From positions 1 through 64,000 of IMG/VR virus record IMGVR_UViG_3300009431_000002: 64,000 bases of DNA. One strand, given 5' to 3'. Made by a program: the position numbers and the translations under genes. This document shows, piece after piece, positions 11,350 through 51,529 of the stretch (its first letter is position 1; each line of letters starts with the position of its first letter). The notes beneath the pieces were generated by a model. That model was not told where the DNA came from. It saw only the letters and a list, made by a program, of their open reading frames with translations, and did no database searches. The DNA is from a virus (taxonomy: Duplodnaviria; Caudoviricetes).

Positions 11350-12208
11350 GCACGTCGAGCCGGACGGTGGCTGGGGCAAGCCCACGGGTACGCCACCGCC
11401 CGACTGGGCCGCGTGGCGGGAGGAGCAGGGGCACTACGTGGTCCAGCTCCGCAACGGCAGCGAGGAGGTCTACGGCCTCGTCACGGTGGTGCTGCTGAGC
11501 ATCCGGAGCGCCTTCGCCCCCGCCACCGAAGAGGAGATGCGGGCGATGGAGCCCACCCAGCTCGGCGACGAGCTGCGGAAGGCCACCTCCCTCTACGACC
11601 TCGTGATGATGGCCCAGGACCCGGAGTACCGCGAGCAGGTCTCCCCGGACAACATCGCGTTCCTCAAGCGCTTCAATCTCGTCGAGGCCGACGGGCGCAT
11701 GCACGGGTCCACCCGCAACATCGTCCGCTCGGCGTTCGAGATCGGCGCCAAGGGCCAGATGCCGGTCCAGAACAATCCGCTGCTTCGCAGGGGCGACGTG
11801 CCCGACCGTCGGGAGGACAAGTCGTTCGAGGACCCGCTGATGCGGATGATGCGGACGACGCCGAGCCCCGTCGCCGACCCCATCCCGGAGGTGCCGGGGG
11901 ACCAGCGGCCCGTCGCGGGCGAGGTGTTCGTCGGCAAGGCCTCCCGCGGCCGCGTGGTGGTGCTGCCGCCGTCGATGAACCCGAGCATCTTCCCGCACCA
12001 CGACACGGTGGTCTACACCAACGAGAAGTGGCCCACGGAGGAGCACCTCCAGTCCCACCAGCCGCACACCATGCGGACCGCGGTGTTCCTGGACACGTTC
12101 GACCGCGTCGAGGACGACGTCATCGGCACCGAGCAGCTGCGGGAGATCGCCAGCCGCTTCGGCGACCCCAACCAGTGGATCCACGCCGACAAGGAGACCG
12201 AGGAGTAG
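11327..12208 (+). CDS. Hypothetical protein
   Basis: Start reassigned to MTDSNGTEH; strong GC3 bias. Confidence 0.7.
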   Translation: MTDSNGTEHVEPDGGWGKPTGTPPPDWAAWREEQGHYVVQLRNGSEEVYGLVTVVLLSIRSAFAPATEEEMRAMEPTQLGDELRKATSLYDLVMMAQDPEYREQVSPDNIAFLKRFNLVEADGRMHGSTRNIVRSAFEIGAKGQMPVQNNPLLRRGDVPDRREDKSFEDPLMRMMRTTPSPVADPIPEVPGDQRPVAGEVFVGKASRGRVVVLPPSMNPSIFPHHDTVVYTNEKWPTEEHLQSHQPHTMRTAVFLDTFDRVEDDVIGTEQLREIASRFGDPNQWIHADKETEE

Positions 12209-12235
12209 CCTGAGTCCCTCCAGCCGGAGGGGCCA

Positions 12236-12258
12236 GGGGCGCGCCCGACGCGCGCCCC
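12236..12258. terminator. GC hairpin between convergent units
   Basis: GGGGCGCGC-ccgac-GCGCGCCCC followed by a T-rich stretch on the plus strand. Confidence 0.5.
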
Positions 12259-12272
12259 GCTTATCTTAGAGT

Positions 12273-12349
12273 TGGTGCGGGTGCTCGGGATCGAACCGAG
12301 GACCTCCTGGTCCCGAACCAGGCGCGCTACCAGACTGCGCTACACCCAC
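12273..12349 (-). tRNA. tRNA-Pro(CGG)
   Basis: Cloverleaf; CCTGG-TT CGG GA-CCAGG; CCA encoded; G1:C72. Confidence 0.93.
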
Positions 12350-12352
12350 ACC

Positions 12353-12429
12353 TGGGGCCGACGCTCGGAATCGAACCGAGAACCTGCTGATTACGAGTCA
12401 GCTGCTCTGCCTGGTTGAGCTACGTCGGC
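12353..12429 (-). tRNA. tRNA-Thr(CGT)
   Basis: GCTGA-CT CGT AA-TCAGC; CCA encoded. Confidence 0.95.
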
Positions 12430-12430
12430 G

Positions 12431-12507
12431 TGGTGCCCCGACCCTGAATTGAACAGGGGACCCCGGACTTATCAGGTCCGTGCTCTACCGGACTGAGCTA
12501 CCGGGAC
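12431..12507 (-). tRNA. tRNA-Ile(GAT)
   Basis: CGGAC-CT GAT AA-GTCCG; CCA encoded. Confidence 0.95.
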
Positions 12508-12556
12508 ACGGGAACTATTCAGTTGTGCATAGGTGCGCCCACCCGGACCGGGCGGG

Positions 12557-12592
12557 CTAGATAATGGTCGTAGGTGGTGTCAGCCAACGCAT
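12557..12592 (-). CDS. Leaderless leader peptide MRWLTPPTTII (Ile/Thr/Pro operon)
   Basis: ATG CGT TGG CTG ACA CCA CCT ACG ACC ATT ATC TAG, 6 nt after TG-C-TACAGT; hairpin GCCCGCCCG-GTC-CGGGTGGGC at the stop. Confidence 0.8.
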   Translation of the reverse strand: MRWLTPPTTII

Positions 12593-12598
12593 GAGGGC

Positions 12599-12607
12599 AC
12601 TGTAGCA
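12599..12607 (-). promoter_or_regulatory. Extended -10 promoter TG-C-TACAGT
   Basis: Identical motif at 14181-14189; no good -35. Confidence 0.6.
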
Positions 12608-12622
12608 CAGGAGGTAGGGTTG

Positions 12623-12676
12623 TGGTAGCCCGACCCGGACTCGAACCGGGGACCTTCGGTATCTAGCCGAAGATCC
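12623..12676 (-). pseudogene. 3' half of a tRNA (anticodon arm remnant, T-arm, acceptor strand, CCA)
   Basis: TTCGG-CTAGATA-CCGAA GGTC CCCGG-TTCGAGT-CCGGG TCGGGCT A CCA; overlaps the stop codon of the 12663 ORF; no matching 5' acceptor strand. Confidence 0.7.
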
Positions 12677-13424
12677 CTTCCACGCGGCCGGCTCGACCCG
12701 ACTGAGTCAGGGTCTTCCCCATGATGTGCCGGGCTTGTCGTTGGGCCATCTCGCCCGCCTGCTCTGGTGACATCTCCGGTAGTTCCTTGGCGCCTCGGAG
12801 GAATCTCCTCTTCATGGCGGCCGGGACCCTCTGGCCGCTTTCCAGGAATTGATGAGCGCGGGGGTCCTTGAACACCTGCGCGAACTGCTGACGGAGAAGC
12901 TCGGTTTCCCCGGTAGCCTCTCTCATTTCCCGCAGTCGCCGGGCAGCGTGCCTCAAGCTCTTGGCTTGCCCCTTCGGAGCGGCCAGACGGTTCAGGAGGT
13001 TCAACTCCTCTACCAGCACTCCGGGGCTGAGGTGAAGACTCTTGCCTAGAGGTACGGCCTTCCTCTCCAACCCCTCATGCAGCGTGAGGAGTGTCTTTGG
13101 GCCACGGCCTTCCACCCCAGGGAGCAGGCCCTTTGCCGCAGACGGGCCGTAGAAGATTCTCCCGGCGTGACGCCCGTACCTGGACTGGAGAGCCTGCACC
13201 AGCTCTTCTGGGATCATTCCCCGCTGCCACTCGAAGAACTCTGGATGCTTGAGGGACTTGCGGATGTGGGCCTTCGTCGGGATCAGCGTCGCTCCCAGCT
13301 GACCCGCCAGCCCCCTAGACCTGGTAGGTGCCAGTCTCCTGGCTGCCGCGTACAGCTCCTGAGCGGACGCAGCCTCCTTGATCTTGCAGAGCTCGTCAAC
13401 GAAAGCCGGGAAGGAGGGACTCAC
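12663..13424 (-). CDS. Hypothetical protein with N-terminal FVDELCKIKEAA motif
   Basis: ORF track; codon usage less GC3-biased than flanks; contains LHEGLE segment. Confidence 0.7.
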   Translation of the reverse strand: MSPSFPAFVDELCKIKEAASAQELYAAARRLAPTRSRGLAGQLGATLIPTKAHIRKSLKHPEFFEWQRGMIPEELVQALQSRYGRHAGRIFYGPSAAKGLLPGVEGRGPKTLLTLHEGLERKAVPLGKSLHLSPGVLVEELNLLNRLAAPKGQAKSLRHAARRLREMREATGETELLRQQFAQVFKDPRAHQFLESGQRVPAAMKRRFLRGAKELPEMSPEQAGEMAQRQARHIMGKTLTQSGRAGRVEGIFG

Positions 13425-13433
13425 GCTCAGAGA

Positions 13434-13829
13434 CTACCCCACCTCGTAGTCGGCCGTAAAGCGGATACCCTTCTTCTGCCCGTTCTTGGGCGGGGTGATC
13501 CGCAACGCGGCTACGCGGATGGCTACATCTTCTACGGGCACCAGGTAGACCTTGTCCAGATCGGGGCAGTAGACACCGAAGAGCTCGACTTGCCCCCTGT
13601 ACCCCTTCCGCTTCCTGGTGCGGTAATCCACGCTGCAGGGGTCGAACTGCACCGCGCCGTTCCGCAGGCGCCCGGTCTTGCACTGGATGCGCTTGAACTC
13701 CCCGTCGTCGTCCATGACGAGGTCGTACCGTTGGTTGTCCCCGAAGGGCTGGAGCATGACCTTCCCTGCCTTGAGGAGGGTGCCGAGGATCACGCCTTCC
13801 GACTTCTCACCGACTTCCTTGGTGTTCAT
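13434..13829 (-). CDS. PD-(D/E)XK family endonuclease (homing-type)
   Basis: GEKSEGVI...PFGDNQRYDLVMD...IQCKTG; leaderless promoter upstream. Confidence 0.85.
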   Translation of the reverse strand: MNTKEVGEKSEGVILGTLLKAGKVMLQPFGDNQRYDLVMDDDGEFKRIQCKTGRLRNGAVQFDPCSVDYRTRKRKGYRGQVELFGVYCPDLDKVYLVPVEDVAIRVAALRITPPKNGQKKGIRFTADYEVG

Positions 13830-13835
13830 GGGGCC

Positions 13836-13864
13836 AGCGTACCTGAGAGCGTCGGGTAGGTCAA
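13836..13864 (-). promoter_or_regulatory. Promoter TTGACC-17-TACGCT, 6 nt before ATG (leaderless)
   Basis: Read directly. Confidence 0.7.
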
Positions 13865-13874
13865 CCGGAGGTGT

Positions 13875-13950
13875 TGGTAGGTCTGGCTGGGCTCGAACCA
13901 GCGACTTCTGCCGTGTGAAAGCAGCACTCTCCCAACTGAGTTACAGACCC
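13875..13950 (-). tRNA. tRNA-Val(CAC)
   Basis: CTGCT-TT CAC AC-GGCAG; CCA encoded. Confidence 0.93.
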
Positions 13951-13988
13951 ACTGACACCGCTGCTCTCCCTAGCTGAGCTACCGGCCC
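13951..13988 (-). pseudogene. 5' half of a tRNA (acceptor strand + D-arm), truncated
   Basis: GGGCCGG TA GCTC AGCTAGGGA GAGC A GCGG... abutting tRNA-Val; no T-arm. Confidence 0.65.
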
Positions 13989-13989
13989 G

Positions 13990-14066
13990 TGGTGGAGGCG
14001 ACAGGAATCGAACCTGCGACCTGCTGCGTGCAAGGCAGCTGCTCTCCCAGCGTGAGCTACGCCCCC
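13990..14066 (-). tRNA. tRNA-Ala(TGC)
   Basis: GCTGC-CT TGC AC-GCAGC; G3:U70; CCA encoded. Confidence 0.95.
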
Positions 14067-14111
14067 ACGGCGAAGATGTAGATGTAGAGGGTCGCTCCCC
14101 GAACCGGGGAG

Positions 14112-14174
14112 CTAGATCGCGGCCACGACAACTGGCAGCGCGAGGAAGACGGAGAGTCGTGCGAGACGTTCCAT
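14112..14174 (-). CDS. Leaderless leader peptide MERLARLSVFLALPVVVAAI (Ala/Val operon)
   Basis: 6 nt after TG-C-TACAGT; hairpin GCTCCCCG-GTT-CGGGGAGC at the stop. Confidence 0.8.
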   Translation of the reverse strand: MERLARLSVFLALPVVVAAI

Positions 14175-14180
14175 GCCGCG

Positions 14181-14189
14181 ACTGTAGCA
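14181..14189 (-). promoter_or_regulatory. Extended -10 promoter TG-C-TACAGT
   Basis: Identical to 12599-12607. Confidence 0.6.
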
Positions 14190-14193
14190 CAAG

Positions 14194-14269
14194 TGGCGCG
14201 AGCTGTGGGAATCGAACCCACCCAGTTGGTTTTGGAGACCAACTCGCCTGCCTTGGGACATGAGCCCGC
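14194..14269 (-). tRNA. tRNA-Trp(CCA)
   Basis: TTGGT-CT CCA AA-ACCAA; atypical D-arm; CCA encoded. Confidence 0.88.
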
Positions 14270-14271
14270 AC

Positions 14272-14347
14272 TGGAACCCCCGACTGGACTCGAACCAGCG
14301 CACGGCGGATTAGAACTCCGCTGCTCTTCCAACTGAGCTACGGGGGC
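14272..14347 (-). tRNA. tRNA-Arg(TCT)
   Basis: GCGGA-GT TCT AA-TCCGC; CCA encoded. Confidence 0.9.
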
Positions 14348-14404
14348 CGACTTGACTGAACTCCCCTACTTGACCGGCTGCTCAAGCGGCCGGGTTTGGT
14401 CAAG

Positions 14405-14480
14405 TGGTACAGACGTCAGGGGTCGAACCTGAAACCACTGGGGCCACATCCCAGCGCTCTGCCAGTTGAGCTACGTCTGC
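14405..14480 (-). tRNA. tRNA-His(GTG)
   Basis: CTGGG-AT GTG GC-CCCAG; A73 and no encoded G-1. Confidence 0.88.
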
Positions 14481-14483
14481 ACG

Positions 14484-14561
14484 TGGTACCCGCGGGAGGA
14501 CTCGAACCTCCGACCTTCCGGTTCGTAGCCGGACGCTCTAGGTCCACTGAGCTACGCGGGC
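14484..14561 (-). tRNA. tRNA-Arg(ACG)
   Basis: TCCGG-CT ACG AA-CCGGA; CCA encoded. Confidence 0.95.
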
Positions 14562-14564
14562 ACG

Positions 14565-14639
14565 TGACCCCGGCAGGACTCGAACCTGCGACCTCCGCGT
14601 CCGGAGCGCGGCGCTCTGGGTCCACTGAGCTACGGGGCC
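14565..14639 (-). tRNA. tRNA-Arg(CCG), CCA not encoded
   Basis: CCGCG-CT CCG GA-CGCGG. Confidence 0.92.
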
Positions 14640-14651
14640 GGTTGTCAAAGA

Positions 14652-14727
14652 TGGCGGTGCCGCCAGGACTCGAACCTGGAACCAGAGCGTTAACAGCGCC
14701 CCGCTCTAGCCATTGAGCTACGACACC
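14652..14727 (-). tRNA. tRNA-Asn(GTT)
   Basis: GGGCG-CT GTT AA-CGCTC; G1:C72; CCA encoded. Confidence 0.93.
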
Positions 14728-14728
14728 G

Positions 14729-14803
14729 TGGTTGCTGCGCCTGGGGTCGAACCAGGGACCTGCCGGTTATGAGCCGGCTGCTCTACCGCTGAGCCACGCA
14801 GCA
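14729..14803 (-). tRNA. tRNA(CAT), elongator Met more likely than Ile2; not initiator
   Basis: GCCGG-CT CAT AA-CCGGC; lacks the GGG/CCC initiator stem. Confidence 0.85.
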
Positions 14804-14806
14804 TCG

Positions 14807-14879
14807 AGGGTCGACCGGGACTCGAACCCGGATCTCCGGATTAAAGGTCCAGGGCGTTATCCATTACGCTCATCGACCC
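14807..14879 (-). tRNA. tRNA-Lys(TTT), CCA not encoded, C33
   Basis: CTGGA-CC TTT AA-TCCGG; acceptor GGGTCGA/TCGACCC. Confidence 0.8.
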
Positions 14880-14880
14880 A

Positions 14881-14956
14881 TGGAGGGTGGAGGGGGACTC
14901 GAACCCCCAACCGCCGGATTAAGAGTCCAGCGCTCTACCTGTTGAGCCATCCACCC
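14881..14956 (-). tRNA. tRNA-Lys(CTT)
   Basis: CTGGA-CT CTT AA-TCCGG; CCA encoded. Confidence 0.95.
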
Positions 14957-14962
14957 GCAGTT

Positions 14963-15008
14963 CTCCGTCTCCACCTGCCGCCCCTTCGGGCAACAAGTAG
15001 ACACGGAG
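14963..15008 (-). promoter_or_regulatory. Long leader hairpin (putative attenuator element)
   Basis: CTCCGT/ACGGAG, TCTACTTG/CAGGTGGA, TTGCCC-GAAG-GGGCGG; G-U pairs work only on the minus strand. Confidence 0.65.
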
Positions 15009-15022
15009 GGGCGGACGCAGAT

Positions 15023-15073
15023 TTACCTGTGCTTGTTCCAGCGGTGCATGAAGGTGGGTCTGACGAAGGTCAT
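15023..15073 (-). CDS. Leaderless leader peptide MTFVRPTFMHRWNKHR (Lys/Met/Asn/Arg/His/Trp operon)
   Basis: ATG ACC TTC GTC AGA CCC ACC TTC ATG CAC CGC TGG AAC AAG CAC AGG TAA, 6 nt after TACGCT. Confidence 0.85.
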   Translation of the reverse strand: MTFVRPTFMHRWNKHR

Positions 15074-15079
15074 GTGGCG

Positions 15080-15108
15080 AGCGTAGACCAGCTCGAGATG
15101 GAGGTCAA
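15080..15108 (-). promoter_or_regulatory. Promoter TTGACC-17-TACGCT
   Basis: Read directly; same hexamers as 13836-13864. Confidence 0.75.
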
Positions 15109-15111
15109 CGG

Positions 15112-15195
15112 ATCCCGACATGAATCCCGACTTCGTGTCGGGATAGCCCCACGCACGTCATCCGGATCCCGACAGGGGTTGACGACACAGTGTCG
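15112..15195. repeat. Operator-like repeats between divergent tRNA promoters
   Basis: ATCCCGAC at 15112, 15124, 15166 and inverted at 15137-15144; palindrome CGACAC-A-GTGTCG at 15183-15195. Confidence 0.6.
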
Positions 15196-15207
15196 CCGTG
15201 CTGTACT
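15179..15207 (+). promoter_or_regulatory. Promoter TTGACG-17-TGTACT, 7 nt before ATG
   Basis: Paralogous to TTGACA-17-TGTAGT at 18744-18772; -10 is non-canonical. Confidence 0.6.
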
Positions 15208-15214
15208 CCGGCCC

Positions 15215-15271
15215 ATGCACTCCTTCGACATCCAATTCGGATTGTCGCTACAGCTCCTGGGTACCCAGTAG
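15215..15271 (+). CDS. Leaderless leader peptide MHSFDIQFGLSLQLLGTQ (Leu/Gly/Gln operon)
   Basis: Read directly; paralog at 18678-18737; followed by alternative GC hairpins. Confidence 0.85.
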   Translation: MHSFDIQFGLSLQLLGTQ

Positions 15272-15327
15272 TCGCCGCCCCCGTACGCCCGTAACCCCGG
15301 GTAGCCGGGGGCGGGAGAAGTGCGTTT

Positions 15328-15413
15328 GGGAGAGTGGCGGAATGGTAGACGCGCGGGTTTCAGGAGCTCGTGTCCTTCGCGGCGTGGGGGTTCGACTCCC
15401 CCCTCTCCCACCA
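15328..15413 (+). tRNA. tRNA-Leu(CAG)
   Basis: CGGGT-TT CAG GA-GCTCG; long variable arm; A73, CCA. Confidence 0.93.
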
Positions 15414-15415
15414 GT

Positions 15416-15500
15416 GCCGGAGTGGCGGAACGGTAGACGCGCGGGTCTGAGGGGCTCGTGTCCGAGTGGCGTCCGGGTTCGACTCCCGGTTCCGGCACCA
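15416..15500 (+). tRNA. tRNA-Leu(GAG)
   Basis: CGGGT-CT GAG GG-GCTCG; long variable arm; CCA. Confidence 0.93.
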
Positions 15501-15514
15501 CAACAAGAACTCGT

Positions 15515-15592
15515 GCGGGAGTAGCTCCAACTGGCTAGAGCAGCGGCCTTCCAAGCCGACGGTTCAGGGTTCGAGCCCCTGTTCCCGCACCA
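15515..15592 (+). tRNA. tRNA-Gly(TCC)
   Basis: CGGC-CT TCC AA-GCCG; A73; CCA. Confidence 0.9.
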
Positions 15593-15593
15593 T

Positions 15594-15671
15594 GTGCCGG
15601 GGCGCAAGGCGTCATAGGGAGAAGGGGACGGCCTCGCTCCTGTTTCGCGTGGGGAAACCCACCCCCGGCAC
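15594..15671 (+). ncRNA. Unclassified tRNA-sized structured RNA
   Basis: 9-bp GTGCCGGGG/CCCCGGCAC closing stem, GTGGG-GAAA-CCCAC arm, two inner hairpins; no TTC loop, no CCA. Confidence 0.5.
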
Positions 15672-15673
15672 CT

Positions 15674-15749
15674 GTGGGCATGGCGCAGTCGGTGGCGCGT
15701 CGGGTTGCCAATCCGAAGGTCGCGGGTTCGAGCCCCGCTGCCCACACCA
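15674..15749 (+). tRNA. tRNA-Gly(GCC) with atypical acceptor
   Basis: TCGGG-TT GCC AA-TCCGA; U2:A71, A73; CCA. Confidence 0.87.
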
Positions 15750-15757
15750 ACAGCTTT

Positions 15758-15846
15758 GCGAGCGTGGCGGAATTGGTATACGCGCCGGATTCAAAATCCG
15801 GTGGTCCTTCGCGGCCGTGCAGGTTCGATGCCTGCCGCTCGCACCA
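15758..15846 (+). tRNA. tRNA-Leu(CAA)
   Basis: CCGGA-TT CAA AA-TCCGG; long variable arm; CCA. Confidence 0.95.
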
Positions 15847-15848
15847 GA

Positions 15849-15924
15849 TGGGGAGTAGTTCAGTTGGTAGAACGGTTGGCTCTGGACCAGCATGTCGGGG
15901 GTTCGAGTCCCTCCTCCCCATCCA
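15849..15924 (+). tRNA. tRNA-Gln(CTG)
   Basis: GTTGG-CT CTG GA-CCAGC; U1:A72; CCA. Confidence 0.93.
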
Positions 15925-15981
15925 TCGTGAAACCCGGCTCGAAATCGGGATAAGGGCCCCGAACCCGAAGCAGGAGGTAGC

Positions 15982-18060
15982 ATGCCCGAATTCAAGCCGT
16001 TCGCCGAGCTTGTCCGATCCGCGTTCCAGGAGATGGCCGCCGGTGGGCTCTTCGTCGTCAACATCAGTGGGGACGACCTGTACGAGTCCTACCTGGGTGC
16101 GTTCCCGGACGGCACCAATCCCGTCTTCCGTGAGCGCACCGAGCACGACTGCAGCAGCTGCAAGCACTTCATCCGCCGCGTGGGCATGGTCATCGACCAG
16201 GACCGCAACACGGTCTGGGACAAGGCCGCCCGAACGGCCGAGTACCCCTACAACGAGGTGGCCTCCGACCTGGCCGCCATGGTCAAGGCCGCTCCGATCC
16301 GCGACGTCTTCCGCGTCCAGGAGAGCGGCATCGGCACCGCCATGAACCGCGGCGTGAGCCCGTCGGGCCAGGTCGAGCGCTGGCACCACTTCCACACCGG
16401 CAGCATCCCGAAGCGCTTCCGCGCGGCGAGCCCGGGGGAGGCCCAGGGCGCGTACCGCACCACCGTCCAGGTCTTCCGGCGCGGGCTGGAGGAGCTGACC
16501 ACCGACGCCCTGGAGACCGTGCTGGCGCTGATCGACGCCAACAACCTCTATCGGGGCGAGGAGCACCGCGAGAAGGTGGCGGGCTTCCTCAAGACGCAGC
16601 AGGAGTTCCTCGACCTCGGCGCCGTTGACCGGGAGCGCTTCGTCTGGGCACGCGCCGACGACCCGGCCACCCGCTTCCGCAACACCGCCATCGGCACCCT
16701 GGTCCAGGACCTGAGCGAGGGCATGGACGTCACGAAGGCGGTCAAGCGGTTCGAGGCGAAGGTCGCGCCGGAGAACTACAAGCGCACCTCGGCCGTCATC
16801 ACCCCCGGCATGGTCAAGGAGGCCATGAAGACCATCACGACGATGGATCTGGAGCCCGCCCTGGAGCGGCGGTTCGCCCGCGTCGAGGACGTCAACGTCA
16901 ACGACGTGCTGTGGGTGGACAACCAGGTCAAGCCGCTGATGGCCGGCGGCCTCGGCGACATGCTCATGGACCACGCCCAGGCAGCGCAGGGCTACGAGCT
17001 CGACGAGAAGCGCGCCGAGGACATCGCCGTCGACGAGTTCCTGGCCAGCGTGCTCCCCGAGGCCGCGGCCGTGGAGCTGCTGCTGAAGACCGCGCACCTG
17101 GGCAACCTGATGTCGCTCACGGCGCCGGTCCACCCGGCGCCCCACCAGCTGTTCCAGTGGGACAACGACTTCGCCTGGTCCTACGCCGGCAACATGGCCG
17201 ACTCCGAGCTGCGCAAGCGCGTGTCCGCCGCCGGCGGACGCGTGGACGGGGCGTTCCGCTTCTCTCACTCGTGGAACCACGACAAGCGCAACGCCTCGCT
17301 GATGGACCTCCACGTCTTCATGCCCGGGAACGGGACCTCGTACTCCCGGCCCGGGACCACCCACGACGTCTACGGCAACAACGAGCGCGTGGGGTGGAAC
17401 CACCGACAGCATCCCAGGTCCGGCGGCGTCCAGGACGTGGACTACGTGAAGGAGGCGCCTCCCGGGTACATCCCCGTCGAGAACATCACGTTCCCCGACA
17501 TCACGCGGATGCGTCCCGGCACGTATATCTGCAAGATCCACAACTGGCAGCTCCGACAGCCCACGCAGGGCGGCTTCCAGGCCGAGATCGAGTTCGGCGG
17601 GCAGGCGTTCACCTACGAGCACCTGGCACCCCTCAAGCACAAGGAGTGGGTGACGGTCGCCACGGTGACGCTGAAGCATGGCGAGTTCTCCATCGAGCAC
17701 CACCTGCCGTGCGGCACGGCCGCCCAGGAGAAGTGGGGCCTGACGTCCGAGCGGTTCGTCAAGGTCAACTTCGTGACCCTGAGCCCCAACCACTGGGGCG
17801 ACAACGCCGTGGGCAACCGCCACACGCTCTTCGTGCTCGACGGCGCGAAGAACGACGAGCCCTGCCGAGGCATCTACAACGAGTTCCTGCACCCCCGCCT
17901 GATCAAGCACCGCAAGGTGTTCGAGGTCATCGGCGACAAGACGAAGTGCCAGCCCACCGAGGGCCAGCTGTCCGGCGTCGGCTTCTCGTCCACGAAGCGC
18001 GACGCCGTGCTCATCAAGATCGACAACCAGCGCCTGTACCGCGTCCGGTTCGGCGCGTAG
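15982..18060 (+). CDS. Large conserved-looking phage protein (692 aa), function unknown
   Basis: AGGAGG RBS; YLxxFPxGTN...EHDCSSCKHFI N-terminal Cys motif; RFSHSWN...MDLHV C-terminal beta domain. Confidence 0.85.
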   Translation: MPEFKPFAELVRSAFQEMAAGGLFVVNISGDDLYESYLGAFPDGTNPVFRERTEHDCSSCKHFIRRVGMVIDQDRNTVWDKAARTAEYPYNEVASDLAAMVKAAPIRDVFRVQESGIGTAMNRGVSPSGQVERWHHFHTGSIPKRFRAASPGEAQGAYRTTVQVFRRGLEELTTDALETVLALIDANNLYRGEEHREKVAGFLKTQQEFLDLGAVDRERFVWARADDPATRFRNTAIGTLVQDLSEGMDVTKAVKRFEAKVAPENYKRTSAVITPGMVKEAMKTITTMDLEPALERRFARVEDVNVNDVLWVDNQVKPLMAGGLGDMLMDHAQAAQGYELDEKRAEDIAVDEFLASVLPEAAAVELLLKTAHLGNLMSLTAPVHPAPHQLFQWDNDFAWSYAGNMADSELRKRVSAAGGRVDGAFRFSHSWNHDKRNASLMDLHVFMPGNGTSYSRPGTTHDVYGNNERVGWNHRQHPRSGGVQDVDYVKEAPPGYIPVENITFPDITRMRPGTYICKIHNWQLRQPTQGGFQAEIEFGGQAFTYEHLAPLKHKEWVTVATVTLKHGEFSIEHHLPCGTAAQEKWGLTSERFVKVNFVTLSPNHWGDNAVGNRHTLFVLDGAKNDEPCRGIYNEFLHPRLIKHRKVFEVIGDKTKCQPTEGQLSGVGFSSTKRDAVLIKIDNQRLYRVRFGA

Positions 18061-18537: not shown

Positions 18538-18622
18538 TGGCGGAGAGGGTGGGAATCGAACCCACACGCCCGAAGACACGAGGTCCTGAACCCCGCGCGT
18601 CTACCAATTCCGCCACTCTCCC
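18538..18622 (-). tRNA. tRNA-Leu(CAG) copy with a Ser-like 3' end (chimera, G73)
   Basis: 5' part near-identical to 15328 copy; 3' end CCCTCTCC G CCA; acceptor pairs only as 6 bp GGAGAG/CTCTCC. Confidence 0.75.
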
Positions 18623-18677
18623 ACACGCACTTCTCCCGCCCCCGGCTACCCGGGGTTCGGGCGTACGGGGGCGGCGA

Positions 18678-18737
18678 CTACTGGATACCCAGAAGCTGGA
18701 GCGACAATCCGAGGACTTGGATGTCGGAGACGTGCAT
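18678..18737 (-). CDS. Leaderless leader peptide MHVSDIQVLGLSLQLLGIQ (duplicate Leu leader)
   Basis: 6 nt after TTGACA-17-TGTAGT; paralog of 15215-15271. Confidence 0.8.
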   Translation of the reverse strand: MHVSDIQVLGLSLQLLGIQ

Positions 18738-24759: not shown

Positions 24760-24848
24760 TGGCGGAGAGGGGGAGAATCGAACTCCCGGCCCTGTCGGGT
24801 CAACGCCTTAGCAGGACGCGGTAGGGCACCAACGCCTACAGCCCCTCC
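24760..24848 (-). tRNA. tRNA-Ser(GCT) with extended D-stem
   Basis: GCGTC-CT GCT AA-GGCGT; D-stem GTAGG/CCTAC; G73, CCA. Confidence 0.85.
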
Positions 24849-24926
24849 TTGCCGCTCGAGCACGCACCCAGAATCACAGAAGCTCCGAACATACCGGCCC
24901 TTTGTTCGGAGCTACTCCGAACATTG

Positions 24927-25012
24927 TGGCGGATGGAGAGCGGATCGAACGCTCGCTGGTGTCCCAGGCCTCGACTTTCCAAGCCGGCACCTTGCCACTC
25001 GGTCACCCATCC
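24927..25012 (-). tRNA. tRNA-Ser(GGA)
   Basis: CGGC-TT GGA AA-GTCG; long variable arm; G73, CCA. Confidence 0.9.
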
Positions 25013-25413
25013 GTGTTGGAGGAGGGTGGGGGATTCGAACCCCCGCACCCAGGGTCACTGGACTCGCCGGATTTCCGGACCTTGACCCCCCTTTTGCGCA
25101 GCTCTGCGCGCCAGGTGCTGTCGCCTAGTGCATCACCTGTGGCGAGGCAGTTGCCCAGGACAGGTACCCGGCAGTGTGCCCTACCGGCAACCCAGTCCTC
25201 CCCCACGTATTCATGGATGCCCCCATCTTGGTCGACGGCGACCATACGGTCGGGAGGAAGGTCGAGTACACGTGACACCTGCGTCCAGACGTCGTCGATG
25301 ACATCGGGGCTGTGCCTAGACCGCGTAGCATGCCAAGGGACCGTGGGAAGTGCCCCAGCGAAACAGGTCCGCACGATCACAATGGCGTCCTCGTTGGCGC
25401 CGTGCTCACACAT
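25003..25413 (-). CDS. Hypothetical protein reading through the tRNA remnant
   Basis: Start MCEHGANED overlaps the HNH stop; C-terminus encoded by tRNA-like sequence. Confidence 0.5.
   Translation of the reverse strand: MCEHGANEDAIVIVRTCFAGALPTVPWHATRSRHSPDVIDDVWTQVSRVLDLPPDRMVAVDQDGGIHEYVGEDWVAGRAHCRVPVLGNCLATGDALGDSTWRAELRKRGVKVRKSGESSDPGCGGSNPPPSSNTDG
25017..25091 (-). pseudogene. tRNA-like remnant lacking D-arm and anticodon (possibly ex-Ser(TGA))
   Basis: Acceptor GGGGGGT/ACCCTCC, CCGGA-AA-TCCGG arm, variable hairpin, perfect T-arm, T CCA. Confidence 0.65.
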
Positions 25414-25876
25414 CGTTTTTCTTCTCCAGTCCGTAGTGCTCCTCGGCGTGGCAGTTGGGGCACAGCAGCTCCAGGTTCTCTGGGTCGTCCGTGCCCCCGT
25501 CAGCGCGGTGCACCTTGTGGTGCACAATCAGGATTTCCGGCAGTCGGTTATACGGGCACCGCTCACACTGCTCTCCACGGAGCTCCCCGAGCATCTTCCG
25601 GAGACGCTTCTTGCGCGCCATGTGGCTATTAGGTTGTCCCTGCCCATATTTGATGCCTGTCCTTTTCTTGTTCGAGCAGGCCTTGCTGCAGGTGATCCTG
25701 CGGCTGTTACCGGCCAGAAACTCGTCGCCGCACACCGGACAGGTCTTCGGCTTCCTGCACCACTTCCCATAGCAGGCCTTGCTGCAGAAGACCTTTCCGC
25801 TCTTCGAGTTCAGATCGCGCTTCCTCCGGTAGACGGGCTTCTCGCAGACAGCACACTCGGCATTGGGTTTGTGCAT
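25406..25876 (-). CDS. HNH endonuclease with N-terminal Cys/Zn fingers
   Basis: IVHHKVHRADGGTDDPENLELLCPNCHAEEH; TG-C-TATGAT -10 upstream. Confidence 0.92.
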   Translation of the reverse strand: MHKPNAECAVCEKPVYRRKRDLNSKSGKVFCSKACYGKWCRKPKTCPVCGDEFLAGNSRRITCSKACSNKKRTGIKYGQGQPNSHMARKKRLRKMLGELRGEQCERCPYNRLPEILIVHHKVHRADGGTDDPENLELLCPNCHAEEHYGLEKKNDV

Positions 25877-25909
25877 GATATGAAATCATAGCACACCCAA
25901 TACCAGAAG

Positions 25910-25995
25910 TGGCGGGCAGGGTGGGAGTCGAACCCACGGAGCTTTCGCCCACTGGTTTTCGAGACCAGCACCATAAGCCACTCGGACACCTGCCC
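25910..25995 (-). tRNA. tRNA-Ser(CGA)
   Basis: CTGGT-CT CGA AA-ACCAG; G73, CCA. Confidence 0.95.
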
Positions 25996-26193
25996 TCACT
26001 TCTGCTTGGGCGGGTCGGCCTTCTCTCGTGCCTTACCAGACTCGGCCAACCCTCCCAGTCGCTCGATCCGCAGACCGTAGTGGTGGGTTGACTCACCTGG
26101 CTTCAGCGCCGCCATCTTCATGCCGAGCCCGGGCTCGTTCCATGGCGCGTCGGCCAGCACCTCCGCATGCTTCTCTCGTCTGTCCTCGGCCAT
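25996..26193 (-). CDS. Small hypothetical protein inside tRNA operon
   Basis: GGAGG RBS before MAEDRREK. Confidence 0.6.
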   Translation of the reverse strand: MAEDRREKHAEVLADAPWNEPGLGMKMAALKPGESTHHYGLRIERLGGLAESGKAREKADPPKQK

Positions 26194-26242
26194 CTGGGCC
26201 TCCGTTTTGCAACCCAACGTCCTTGACAGGACGGGCATCTTG

Positions 26243-26330
26243 TGGTGGGCCGGGGAGGGATCGAACCTCCAGGGTCGCAATGACTCCGGGTCTACAGTCC
26301 GGCGCGCTTCCAGTTACGCTCTACCGACCC
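26243..26330 (-). tRNA. tRNA-Tyr(GTA)
   Basis: CCGG(A)-CT GTA GA-(C)CCGG; variable arm; CCA. Confidence 0.9.
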
Positions 26331-26346
26331 ACGTGTATTCAGTTGT

Positions 26347-26422
26347 TGGCGGAGACGACGGGGCTCGAACCCGCTACCTCCCGGGCGACAGCCGGGCGTC
26401 CTTCCACCAGGACCTCGTCTCC
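26347..26422 (-). tRNA. tRNA-Asp(GTC)
   Basis: CCCGG-CT GTC GC-CCGGG; G73, CCA. Confidence 0.95.
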
Positions 26423-26425
26423 GCA

Positions 26426-26501
26426 TGGTGGATCGGGCTGGAGTTGAACCAGCGGCACCGAGATTTTCAGTCCCGTGCTCTACCTGCTGAGCTACCGATC
26501 C
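26426..26501 (-). tRNA. tRNA-Phe(GAA)
   Basis: CGGGA-CT GAA AA-TCTCG; CCA. Confidence 0.95.
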
Positions 26502-26504
26502 ACA

Positions 26505-26580
26505 TGGAGCAGGCATCCGGACTCGAACCGGAGATGACCGGAGCTGCAATCCGGCGCCTTACCAACTTGGCTATGCCCGC
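26505..26580 (-). tRNA. tRNA-Cys(GCA)
   Basis: CCGGA-TT GCA GC-TCCGG; U73, CCA. Confidence 0.95.
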
Positions 26581-26591
26581 TCAAACCTCTG

Positions 26592-26637
26592 CTCTCCCAT
26601 CCTGCGCCCCTTCGGGGCCAGGACAGGTCACGGAGAG
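26592..26637 (-). promoter_or_regulatory. Long leader hairpin homologous to 14963-15008
   Basis: CTCTCC/GGGAGAG, TCCTG/CAGGA, GCCCC-GAAG-GGGC. Confidence 0.65.
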
Positions 26638-26649
26638 ACGCAGACGCAG

Positions 26650-26712
26650 TTATGCGGAGTCGCTATCGAAGCAATAGGAAGACGATGACAGGAGGGGTGC
26701 AGCGGTGTGCAT
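26650..26712 (-). CDS. Leaderless leader peptide MHTAAPLLSSSSYCFDSDSA (Cys/Phe/Asp/Tyr/Ser operon)
   Basis: ATG CAC ACC GCT GCA CCC CTC CTG TCA TCG TCT TCC TAT TGC TTC GAT AGC GAC TCC GCA TAA, 6 nt after TACGGT. Confidence 0.88.
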   Translation of the reverse strand: MHTAAPLLSSSSYCFDSDSA

Positions 26713-47995: not shown

Positions 47996-49825
47996 CTACC
48001 AGGCGTCCTTGCTGGAGACCCTGGGTCCAGTCACGCGATACTGGCACAGGAAGCCGTCGTGCGCACGAGCCTTCCGGTGCTTCTGCCTGTACCGCTTGTA
48101 GAAGTCGTAGTCGTGGCCCTTCTTCCAGACACCCTGTCCGGTGGACCACTCCTCGTCGTACATCGTCTCCAGCGCCCACGCAGTGCGGAACGCCACGCAG
48201 CCGCTGTGCGGGGCGAACCGGCGCCCCTCCTTGCCGTCCCATCGATGCTCCCCGACGCGCTCCCCGCCGTGGTCGATCAGCCGTGCGCTGCCCCAGAACA
48301 AGCCCAGCTGCGGGTCCTTCTCGAACGCCTCGACGGTGATCTTCAGCCGGTCGGGCAAGGAGATGTCGTCGTCGTCGTTGTTGGCGATGAGCGGGGCTCG
48401 CGCGTGCAACAGCACCTGGTTGCGCTTCCACGACAGGTTGCTGTTGGGGTAGTGGAACCACACGATCCGCGGGTCCCTGAAGGACTCCAGCACCTTCCGC
48501 ACCTTCGGGTCTGTGCTGTCGTCGATGATGATGAGCTCCCAGTCGCGCATCGACTGCGCCAGGATCCCCTCGATGGCCTGGAACAGGAACCGCGGCCGGT
48601 TGTGCGAGACCATCATCACCGTGACCTTCGGCGCGTTGGTCGCCGTCCGCAGGCCGTGCCGCCGTCGCCAGATATTGCCGAGGCGCATTAGGTCCTCCTT
48701 CTCCCAGTTCTGGTACATGTCCAAGCTCACCTCGGGGGCGTCGTCGGCGGCGAGCTCCTCGGCGAGCGCCCTTCGCCACTCGTCGAGGTCGTGCGGAGGC
48801 ACGAACACTCCGTGGTGCGGAAGGGCTTCGCGGATCCCAGGTAGGTCTGAGGCGATGACCCTCGCGCCCCCGATGGCCGCCTCCACAGCGGCCATGCCGT
48901 AGGTCTCGGTCTCCGAGGGCATGAGGTGAACCCGGCTGCGCGAGAAGAAGCGCCGCAGGTCCCGGGCCGGCCCCACCATCTGGACGTTCGGCAACACCTC
49001 CAGGCCCTCGACCTGGGTGCCGTAGCCGCCGCGGGCGATGAGGAAGTGCTGGTCGTTGAACTCCCGGGCCAGTTCCCGGACGATGTTGCCGCCCTTCGAC
49101 CCGGAGGGGTTGATCATGGTCACGCTGTCCCGCTTCGGCGCCAGTCCCCCGAGGATGCGCGACGTGTCGATGACTGGACGGACGATCACGCTGTCCTTCG
49201 GCTTCCCGCACTCCTCCCACAGCGAGTACGAGTTGAAGATCCATCCTGCGGGCTTGTACCCCTGTGAAAGCGGATGGTCGTAGCTCCACTTCACGTGGCA
49301 GTACAGGTAGACCGGCACGGTGCCGAGCTCGAGGAACGGATGCGCAGCCTCGAACTGCGCCACGACCACGTCCGGCCGCATCCGCGCGAGCAGGGGCTTG
49401 ACGTAGTGCCGTTCCCATCTTGGGAACCCGGAGTGCAGGAGCACCCCCTCCATCGACTCCACTCCGCCAGGGCCCTCGCCCTCGACTGCGACGACATCGA
49501 AGCCGTCCCGGACCAGGGCCTGGGCCAGCCCCATCATCGCGGTCTCGCCCCCGGCGTAGACGTAGGGGGGCAGCCTCGGGGACACGCACAGGACCAGTGG
49601 CTTGGTCTTGGGGGGCGCACCCGTCAGCAGGAGCATCGCGGCGCCCCGCCGTCCAGGCTTGACGTTCAGCGGGCGCCCTTCGATCTCGCCCATCCTCGTC
49701 ACGACGTTGCCTGCGAAGCGCGTGTAGCGCTCGGCGGGTACAGGGCTCGTCGGGGCCAGGACTGCGACGACGTCGCTGAACGTCTCGTAGATCCTATCCG
49801 AGATCAGGTGGATGTCGTCAGCCAC
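47996..49825 (-). CDS. GT4 (GT-B) + GT2 (GT-A) bifunctional glycosyltransferase
   Basis: GGET, ETYGMAAVEAAIGG..VIASDLPG; then VMMVSHNRP...WELIIIDD...NDDDDISLPDRL. Confidence 0.85.
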   Translation of the reverse strand: MADDIHLISDRIYETFSDVVAVLAPTSPVPAERYTRFAGNVVTRMGEIEGRPLNVKPGRRGAAMLLLTGAPPKTKPLVLCVSPRLPPYVYAGGETAMMGLAQALVRDGFDVVAVEGEGPGGVESMEGVLLHSGFPRWERHYVKPLLARMRPDVVVAQFEAAHPFLELGTVPVYLYCHVKWSYDHPLSQGYKPAGWIFNSYSLWEECGKPKDSVIVRPVIDTSRILGGLAPKRDSVTMINPSGSKGGNIVRELAREFNDQHFLIARGGYGTQVEGLEVLPNVQMVGPARDLRRFFSRSRVHLMPSETETYGMAAVEAAIGGARVIASDLPGIREALPHHGVFVPPHDLDEWRRALAEELAADDAPEVSLDMYQNWEKEDLMRLGNIWRRRHGLRTATNAPKVTVMMVSHNRPRFLFQAIEGILAQSMRDWELIIIDDSTDPKVRKVLESFRDPRIVWFHYPNSNLSWKRNQVLLHARAPLIANNDDDDISLPDRLKITVEAFEKDPQLGLFWGSARLIDHGGERVGEHRWDGKEGRRFAPHSGCVAFRTAWALETMYDEEWSTGQGVWKKGHDYDFYKRYRQKHRKARAHDGFLCQYRVTGPRVSSKDAW

Positions 49826-51172: not shown

Positions 51173-51529
51173 TCACATCACCGCGAGGTCGACGTCGTCG
51201 CCGACCTTCATCGTGATGTCGTTCATGTGCAGCAGGCAGTGCTCGACGTCCTCCACCTTCTTCAGGGGGATGGCGTCCTTGAGGAAGCGGCGGAAGGTGA
51301 TCCGGTCGCCCGGCTCCACCGGCGGCGTCAGGGTCACGCCCTTGTCGGTGAGCTGGCCGGGGCCGACGCGGACCACGCGGCCGACGCCCTCCATGACGTG
51401 CTCGCGGCCGACGTCCTGGTTGGGCCGGTACAGCCCGCCGCGGGTCTTCTCGCCGCGCGGCTCCACGGAGACGAGCACGTAGGGGCCCATCGGGCGGATG
51501 ACGTCGGGGTGGATGTCAGAGCTGTCCAT
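51173..51529 (-). CDS. groES: GroES/Cpn10 co-chaperonin
   Basis: IRPMGPYVLV, EKTRGGLYRP mobile loop, GRVVRVGPG, VEPGDRI. Confidence 0.88.
   Translation of the reverse strand: MDSSDIHPDVIRPMGPYVLVSVEPRGEKTRGGLYRPNQDVGREHVMEGVGRVVRVGPGQLTDKGVTLTPPVEPGDRITFRRFLKDAIPLKKVEDVEHCLLHMNDITMKVGDDVDLAVM

Follow-up and report, generated by a model that had tools for sequence, protein, structure and literature searches.

In the first 64,000 nucleotides (nt) of virus record IMGVR_UViG_3300009431_000002 (Duplodnaviria; Caudoviricetes), a stretch that we call the window, each of six transfer RNA (tRNA) units is headed by a short open reading frame (ORF) whose last codons stand for amino acids of the tRNAs downstream, with a stable hairpin separating this ORF from the first tRNA. 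We think it fairly probable that these leaders are ribosome-stalling sensors that tie read-through of each tRNA operon to the decoding capacity for its own amino acids, such that slow decoding leads to more read-through. Phage tRNA genes are usually seen as constitutive codon-usage helpers or as spares against tRNA-cleaving defenses, and to our knowledge the control of their expression is essentially unknown. Full-text literature searches turned up no account of tRNA genes controlled by leader peptides or attenuators. The system can be regarded as a form of ribosome-mediated attenuation on tRNA genes, in a GC-rich phage whose units all appear leaderless and none of which has a textbook terminator.

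The whole record is 201,921 bp long, is rated 100% complete, and has ~67% G+C. ARAGORN makes 29 tRNA calls genome-wide, every one of them at 12.2-26.6 kb of the window. Twenty-eight are credible and together cover 19 amino acids, with Glu alone missing; all of these (28/28) sit 3' of the leader and hairpin layout, in the six units.

Unit 1 lies on the minus strand and carries nine tRNAs (14194-14956; Lys CTT, Lys TTT, Met CAT, Asn GTT, Arg CCG, Arg ACG, His GTG, Arg TCT and Trp CCA). Its leader region runs from 15108 to 15023, the span from the first base of the -35 element to the leader stop codon, and consists of a -35 element TTGACC read from the sequence (15103-15108), a 17-nt spacer, a -10 element TACGCT of the TANNNT type (15080-15085), and a 16-codon ORF closed by TAA (15023-15073; ATG 15073-15071, TAA 15025-15023). 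With 6 nt between the -10 element and the ATG, the predicted start of transcription falls on the A of this ATG or beside it, which would give a leaderless mRNA, and no Shine-Dalgarno sequence stands ahead of the ATG. The promoter went uncalled in a scan with the E. coli consensus. Codons 9-16 read ATG CAC CGC TGG AAC AAG CAC AGG (M H R W N K H R), and together with AGA at codon 5 they make up the control codons of this unit; the first tRNA starts 66 nt past the leader ORF. The sequence-only reading of this region had noticed that eight consecutive leader residues match tRNAs of the operon and that all six amino acids are covered, and this is borne out by the ORF itself and by the nine tRNAs, which both ARAGORN and Rfam call. 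In the six-frame translation of the genome (403,838 residues) there are 20 runs of at least eight K/M/N/R/H/W residues, and the unit 1 run is the only one that is not dominated by Arg and His, the others having at most three kinds of residue.

Two finer points of that reading held in part. It had set the Arg codons AGA, CGC and AGG against the tRNAs with TCT, ACG and CCG anticodons; the three codons are present, but the one-to-one assignment is wrong, as tRNA-Arg(UCU) reads both AGA and AGG, tRNA-Arg(ACG) reads CGC, and CGG is absent from the unit 1 leader. Its argument that the tRNA with the CAT anticodon is a Met rather than an Ile2 tRNA, drawn from the codons of the leader, is reasonable but circular, and the sequence cannot settle it. 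This tRNA has a paired U1:A72 end and is thus not an initiator.

The same design recurs in the other five units. Unit 2 diverges from unit 1 on the plus strand, where its promoter and leader (15179-15271) comprise TTGACG, a 17-nt spacer, TGTACT, 7 nt, and an 18-codon ORF (15215-15271) with the tail GGA, TTG, CTA, CAG, CTC, CTG, GGT, CAG. The tRNAs that follow (15328-15924, called by ARAGORN and Rfam) are Leu CAG, Leu GAG, Gly TCC, Gly GCC, Leu CAA and Gln CTG, and each of the six anticodons (6/6) has a cognate codon in the leader. The remaining units are on the minus strand. In unit 3 the leader and hairpin (26585-26712) consist of a leaderless 20-codon ORF (26712-26650) with an 11-residue run of S/Y/C/F/D codons and a long hairpin (26647-26585), ahead of Cys, Phe, Asp, Tyr and Ser CGA tRNAs, an HNH endonuclease gene, and Ser GGA and Ser GCT tRNAs (24760-26580, ARAGORN). 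The unit 4 leader (14094-14174) has an extended -10 (TGTGCTACAGT), 6 nt, a 20-codon ORF (14174-14112) with the C-terminal end V V V A A I, and an 8-bp hairpin (14112-14094), and precedes Ala TGC and Val CAC tRNAs (13875-14066, ARAGORN and Rfam). The unit 5 leader (12537-12592) has an extended -10 as in unit 4, an 11-codon ORF (12592-12557) ending in T P P T T I I, and a 9-bp hairpin (12557-12537), and precedes Ile GAT, Thr CGT and Pro CGG tRNAs (12273-12507, ARAGORN and Rfam). Unit 6 (18538-18737) joins an ORF (18737-18678) and a hairpin (18677-18634) to a lone tRNA-Leu CAG.

Across the six units the ORFs have 11-20 codons and lie 45-69 nt ahead of the first tRNA. A -10 element, of the TANNNT type or extended, ends 6-7 nt ahead of every ATG, with no Shine-Dalgarno sequence, and from this spacing all six transcripts are predicted to start at the ATG and to be leaderless. 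There is no promoter-like element between the leader ORF and the first tRNA in any of the six. A strict pattern of promoter and ATG has seven matches in the 202-kb genome, of which four belong to tRNA leaders and three to protein genes. The recurrence of the design, the position of the leaderless ATG, and a codon choice unlike that of the phage all speak for the further claim of the sequence-only reading, that the unit 1 ORF is a leader peptide matched to its own tRNA operon.

The match between leaders and cargo is far from what chance would give. We counted runs of consecutive residues drawn from a unit's cargo set and took the expectation for 120 upstream positions from the six-frame translation of the whole genome. 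The cargo-residue runs are 8, 5, 11, 5 and 7 long, with expected numbers of 5.9e-3, 9.1e-2, 5.9e-4, 3.4e-2 and 2.7e-3, respectively, and a product of 2.9e-11. When leaders are scored against units by a log-odds segment score, the true assignment is the best of 120 permutations (53.8 versus 39.2 for the next). The same script found no comparable match in ~75 tRNA units from some 55 loci of other phages. Full-length scans of Virus Rctr197k (41 tRNAs) and of two relatives with complete records (20 and 15 tRNAs), which served as negative controls, also gave nothing of the kind.

Codon choice within the leaders is also unusual. For 25 of the 27 tRNAs, the leader of the same unit contains a cognate or wobble codon under standard wobble rules, and 33 of 44 control codons can be decoded by tRNAs of the unit to which they belong. 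The third base is A or T in 19 of 52 control codons, against 4.1 expected from the usage of a phage whose G+C content at third codon positions is 0.916, a value that none of 100,000 simulations reaches. Synonymous codons are seldom repeated, with 32 distinct codons in 37 occurrences versus 21.5 expected (0 of 200,000 simulations). Because the control codons are rare and nonrepeated, they would be slow and varied in decoding, which fits a sensor that is active during slow decoding. That leader codons match anticodons would also be expected if the RNA sensed tRNAs directly, as a T-box does, with the codons acting as specifiers that pair with anticodons and with no translation involved. We regard this as the least credible of the explanations considered here: in 12200-16000 there is no match to a T-box or to any other Rfam family beyond tRNAs and chance hits (E up to 0.1), no Stem I or T-box motif is present, and the matched codons share one reading frame that opens with an ATG at the predicted 5' end of the transcript and closes with a stop codon.

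A hairpin stands 0-14 nt past the stop codon in every unit. In unit 1 it has 20 bp (leader nt 66-111; 14963-15008, minus strand), begins 14 nt past the stop codon, and ends 6 nt ahead of tRNA-Lys. Its energy is -38.4 kcal/mol (z = -5.2), and since it includes four G:U pairs and is far weaker on the opposite strand (z = -1.45), it is a feature of the RNA of the tRNA strand. Units 2-6 have hairpins of -31.3, -36.2, -16.2, -20.4 and -31.5 kcal/mol. Those of units 2 (15272-15316, plus strand; z = -2.7) and 6 follow immediately after the stop codon, and those of units 4 and 5 start at its last base. For transcripts arriving from upstream units, the first strong hairpins are those of units 4 and 5, a position that would fit a role as terminators. 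Promoter-to-ATG spacing, the codon match in six units, the unusual codons, and the hairpins together make what we consider a strong case, as far as sequence can make one, for the sensing half of the proposal.

In the mechanism that we favor, the leaderless mini-gene at the head of each unit would serve as a test track for ribosomes, with its last 7-11 codons given over to cargo amino acids, many of them in rare synonymous form. If the corresponding aminoacyl-tRNAs were scarce, the first ribosome would linger on the leader; if they were plentiful, it would reach the stop codon and leave. The place and dwell time of that ribosome would decide whether RNA polymerase passes the stable hairpin into the tRNA genes. 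The favored direction is homeostatic, in that slow decoding would give more read-through and hence more of exactly those tRNAs. We favor it because rare and varied codons would be self-defeating if slow decoding shut the operon, and because a leader of phiCbK, described below, has a classical layout in which stalling favors read-through. There are two routes by which a ribosome could act: a stalled ribosome might shield C-rich leader RNA from Rho, as in the tna operon, or a ribosome on the last codons might cover the hairpin's 5' arm. For the Rho route, C/G ratios in the leader ORFs are 1.3-2.4 against a genome median of 1.0, compatible with Rho loading, units 4 and 5 have G-poor spacers downstream of the hairpin, and U-tracts are missing. 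Translation of the mini-genes, stalling, and premature termination in the hairpin region are steps that we infer, and the output step and the direction of the response are put forward in the same way because neither a U-tract terminator nor a convincing antiterminator is present.

Comparison with known systems shows where the leaders conform and where they depart. Among published systems, two come nearest, namely the multivalent leaders of enterobacteria and the polycysteine short ORFs of mycobacteria. The leaders trpL, hisL, thrL (Thr/Ile) and ilvL (Ile/Val/Leu) act as transcription attenuators of enterobacterial amino-acid operons, in multivalent form in some cases. Here, as there, a short 5' ORF with a run of relevant codons and a stable hairpin precede the genes, and ribosome speed is the presumed signal; unlike there, the cargo consists of tRNA genes, a single leader covers up to six amino acids, the mRNA is apparently leaderless, and the hairpin has no U-tract and no competing antiterminator that we could find. 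In the tna operon of E. coli, TnaC stalls the ribosome through the nascent peptide and free tryptophan, not through tRNA supply. The resemblance is that a ribosome held at the end of a C-rich leader could exclude Rho, with no need for an intrinsic terminator; unlike in tna, no rut or boxA element is defined here, and the Rho route is hypothetical. In mycobacteria, leaderless short ORFs with polycysteine runs pause ribosomes and form a ribosome-directed regulon (Canestrari et al., bioRxiv 10.1101/834739). These ORFs begin at the AUG at the 5' end of the transcript, as the window leaders are predicted to do, use a run of codons for one amino acid as the sensor that governs the operon, and belong to a GC-rich bacterium; they differ from the present case, in which each leader senses a different set of amino acids and the downstream genes are tRNAs. 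Because the downstream genes are tRNAs, the output here must be transcriptional or at the level of RNA.

A further analogy is found in phiCbK-like phages of Caulobacter. The genome of phiCbK (NC_019405) contains a leaderless 32-codon ORF that starts from a promoter-proximal ATG at 51341 (leader region 51341-51505) and in which codons 5-18 specify Tyr, Arg, Gln, Phe, Val, Arg, Gln, Ile, Gln, Val, Val, Arg, Asn and Ile, followed by an annotated rho-independent terminator and then by Phe/Val/Ile/Ile/Val/Gln/Gln tRNAs. CcrBL9, CcrColossus and CcrPW have homologous leaders in which the composition is kept and the order shuffled, and their units hold the Asn and Arg tRNAs that phiCbK has lost. A conserved segment of the ORF pairs with the 5' arm of the terminator (probability 0.93 in the truncated transcript), and CcrBL9 has matching substitutions in the ORF segment, the 5' arm and the 3' arm, a three-way compensatory change. 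Codon runs match the downstream tRNA units in leader ORF regions 48081-48143, 49540-49677 and 51341-51505 of NC_019405, and the phiCbK gene for gp335 (45 amino acids; rich in Pro, Lys, Leu, Ala and Ser) precedes a Pro/Pro/Lys/Lys/Leu/Leu/Leu/Ala/Ser/Ser tRNA unit. The Glu/Asp leader at 48081-48143 is a weak match. A Tyr-like tRNA that can be made out by eye past the phiCbK terminator was called by neither ARAGORN nor Rfam, and we do not count it. Like the window leaders, this type combines a leaderless short ORF, a codon run (Tyr, Arg, Gln, Asn, Phe, Val, Ile) that answers to the tRNAs downstream (Val/Ile/Gln/Asn/Arg/Phe), a GC-rich host, and many phage tRNAs. It differs in having no sequence similarity to the window leaders and in possessing both a U-tract terminator and an antiterminator, which they lack. 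The publication of the phiCbK genome (Gill et al. 2012, PMC3556154) says nothing of attenuators or leaders.

Several results weigh against the stalling-sensor reading of the window. Eleven of the 44 control codons (e.g., CCA, CCT, ACA, TCA, CTA and CAA) cannot be read by the tRNAs of their own unit, and tRNA-Arg(CCG) and tRNA-Pro(CGG) have no cognate codon in their own leaders. Relatives anchored on the 692-residue DUF8224 protein encoded next to unit 2 lack matched leaders, both in IMG/VR (20 loci) and in JGI metagenomes (30 loci), and synteny is not kept; as no leader-bearing relative was found, these leaders have no support from conservation or covariation. A search of IMG/VR for the promoter and ATG pattern also found nothing, and a look-up of sequencing runs listed none that contains this region. 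The lack of conservation, and the fact that translation of the leaders is a prediction, would suit the view that nothing is regulated here at all, and that the ORFs arose by chance in promoter-proximal spacers or encode peptides with functions unrelated to tRNAs. This view is nevertheless very improbable, given the joint expectation and the permutation result reported above, the highly nonrandom codon usage, and the presence of the design in all six units and not in the control phages.

The RNA folding results add to the case against. We folded the leaders at equilibrium and as truncated transcripts, masking a 28-nt ribosome footprint codon by codon. None of the six hairpins is backed by a U-tract, and a terminator scan was empty on the leader strands. 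No antiterminator able to compete with the hairpin was found in equilibrium or truncated folds. The unit 1 hairpin is unaffected at every position of the footprint and, for all masked stretches extending as far as 13 nt beyond the stop codon, keeps a pairing probability of at least 0.99. When the transcript is truncated ahead of the 3' arm, unit 1 alone pairs its 5' arm with the last codons and stop, and this pairing is weak at approximately -8 kcal/mol. Lastly, for a single hairpin adjoining a stop codon, the simplest physical reading is the opposite direction of response, with an arriving ribosome melting the hairpin.

The same folds bear on whether the leaders are classical attenuators of the trp type, in which ribosome position would pick between alternative folds of an intrinsic terminator. 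The sequence-only reading had proposed mutually exclusive folds for unit 1, with CCACCU and CCGC (leader nt 17-22 and 30-33) competing with the 5' arm for GCGG and AGGUGG in the 3' arm (nt 93-96 and 98-103). The complementarity is there, but the switch is unsupported: enforcing this pairing gives -32.5 against -48.3 kcal/mol for the best fold, a cost of 15.8 kcal/mol, and the pairing alone is worth -10.2 kcal/mol versus -38.4 for the hairpin. In favor of such a scheme, unit 3 has a real alternative fold, the best one at full length, in which the outer 3' arm is taken up by the 5' half of the ORF and which shifts with ribosome position; the weak pairing of the unit 1 5' arm in truncated transcripts points the same way. 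Set against this are the immovable hairpin of unit 1, the missing U-tracts, and the absence of any alternative pairing in units 2, 4, 5 and 6, in equilibrium as well as truncated masked folds. A classical terminator-antiterminator switch is not demonstrable in these leaders, and we judge a trp-type attenuator to be a distinctly unlikely account of them.

The main rival to the favored reading keeps the sensor and reverses its output. A ribosome that follows polymerase closely to the stop codon would melt a pausing or terminating hairpin, so that fast decoding gives read-through and stalling turns the operon off. This would amount to an amino-acid-specific, stringent-like control, in which no tRNA for a given amino acid is made when that amino acid cannot be charged, and it resembles the coupling logic of the pyrBI leader. 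The geometry of units 2, 4, 5 and 6, with hairpins 0-2 nt past the stop codon, suits it well. With the stop codon or the final sense codon in the ribosomal A site, the hairpin is abolished (pairing probability 0.00-0.11), and a ribosome further upstream leaves it intact (0.8-0.9); the unit 2 hairpin, for instance, is lost only in these two positions. The failure to find an antiterminator also fits. In units 1 and 3, however, the main hairpin is so distant from the stop codon that a terminating ribosome could not melt it, and rare control codons in a GC-rich host would hold the operon off before any phage tRNA exists. The analogous phiCbK-type leader is laid out in the classical way, in which stalling would favor the antiterminator. 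We therefore consider a reversed sensor unlikely, if worth keeping in view, and retain the homeostatic direction.

A further alternative moves the control to after transcription, where ribosome occupancy and the hairpin would steer 5'-end-dependent decay or processing of the precursor by RNase J, E, III or P. The unit 1 hairpin does end only 6 nt ahead of the first tRNA, none of the hairpins has a terminator tail, and in units 2 and 6 the 5' AUGCAC pairs with GUGCGU beyond the hairpin, a pairing that would hide the start codon in a completed leader. RNase P, however, frees mature tRNAs whatever the leader, leaving little obvious leverage on tRNA yield, and the match between control codons and cargo goes unexplained. 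We give this account little credence, slightly less than the trp-type attenuator.

The leaders bear marks of evolution within the genome. The unit 6 leader is a paralog of the unit 2 leader (90% identical), and a single loop base distinguishes the hairpins and flanks of the two. Within the ORF, changes at control Leu codons are all synonymous (CTA to CTC, CTC to CTT), and those at noncontrol positions alter the amino acid. Units 1 and 3 have a common promoter and hairpin apex (a GCCC/GGGC core and a GAA-type loop) with control codons that differ and that match each unit's own cargo. Units 4 and 5 have the extended -10 in common.

If the favored reading is true, this phage gauges decoding capacity for groups of amino acids and adjusts its tRNA supply accordingly, and a classic principle in the control of amino-acid biosynthesis reaches the translation machinery itself. 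More speculatively, the six leaders might form a codon-resolved array that reports decoding capacity by class and switches on the tRNA operon whose host counterparts have been depleted, an inducible counter-defense that may act via Rho. Such depletion could come from anticodon nucleases of defense systems, for example, or from a codon mismatch between phage and host. We hold this extension to be possible but rather doubtful. The form found in the window is unusually complete, with six units in three structural classes, all of them leaderless by prediction, and because it departs from the textbook terminator-antiterminator scheme, it lends itself to testing Rho-dependent or occlusion-type attenuation. 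For tests of the principle in a cultured, genetically tractable system, there are the phiCbK-like leaders.

The tRNA region also contains nuclease genes and remnants of tRNAs. Within unit 3, the HNH endonuclease gene (PF01844, E = 1.7e-12; 25409-25876, minus strand) has an extended -10 and leaderless ATG of its own and stands between Ser CGA on one side and Ser GGA and Ser GCT on the other. The gene resembles a mobile insertion that entered an older operon, and since codons for the Ser GGA and GCT tRNAs (TCC/TCT and AGC) are still present in the unit 3 leader, the insertion probably came later than the leader design. Between units 4 and 5 lies a PD-(D/E)XK nuclease gene (PF11645; 13434-13829, minus strand) whose promoter (TTGACC, 17 nt, TACGCT, 6 nt, leaderless ATG) is the same as that of tRNA leaders. 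A tRNA 5' half sits at 13951-13989, between tRNA-Ala and tRNA-Val of unit 4, and a 3' half (T arm and acceptor end) at 25010-25060, ahead of tRNA-Ser GGA. The ARAGORN call 'Ser(aga)' at 12623-12699 was discounted for its poor, mismatched acceptor stem and lack of Rfam support. These fragments and pseudo-tRNAs point to earlier rearrangements of the array. Unit 5 ends, directly past tRNA-Pro, with a perfect 9-bp GC hairpin (12236-12258) that has a T-rich tail on the plus strand only; it probably terminates a convergent plus-strand gene and perhaps also ends the tRNA operon, with no U-tract.

The DUF8224 gene (15925-18060, plus strand) begins 57 nt past tRNA-Gln of unit 2. It has a strong AGGAGG ribosome-binding site and no hairpin intervenes, so it may be cotranscribed with the unit 2 leader and controlled by it. 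DUF8224 occurs across phages of many hosts, and among the matches listed from a set of 5.8 billion proteins the closest relative is 82% identical. In this closest visible relative, a 3.3-kb metagenome contig (L090:8-445), a tmRNA gene (Rfam RF00023, 91 bits) lies upstream of the DUF8224 gene and occupies the place of this phage's Leu/Gly/Gln tRNA operon. A 253-residue gene within the tRNA region has no homolog but itself, the contigs that carry it being the same genome, and a neighboring ORF of 1174 residues has no match in cultured phages. In a distant relative with 45% G+C (L008:13513-13725), a 31-codon ORF with a Shine-Dalgarno sequence ends in H Q P Q P T K and precedes an unrecognized tRNA-like element and Glu/Pro/Gln/His/Lys tRNAs, with no terminator. 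It may be a further case of a matched leader, and is not significant on its own.

Finally, the DNA between the divergent promoters of units 1 and 2 is repetitive. Four copies of ATCCCGAC, three direct and one inverted, lie within 15112-15173, so that four of the six copies in the 64-kb window fall in these 62 nt, and the spacer of the unit 2 promoter contains the palindrome CGACACAGTGTCG (within 15112-15194). The ATCCCGAC copies are likely, though putative, binding sites for a DNA-binding regulator. Both they and the palindrome look like operator sites, and units 1 and 2 may thus also be under the control of such a regulator.

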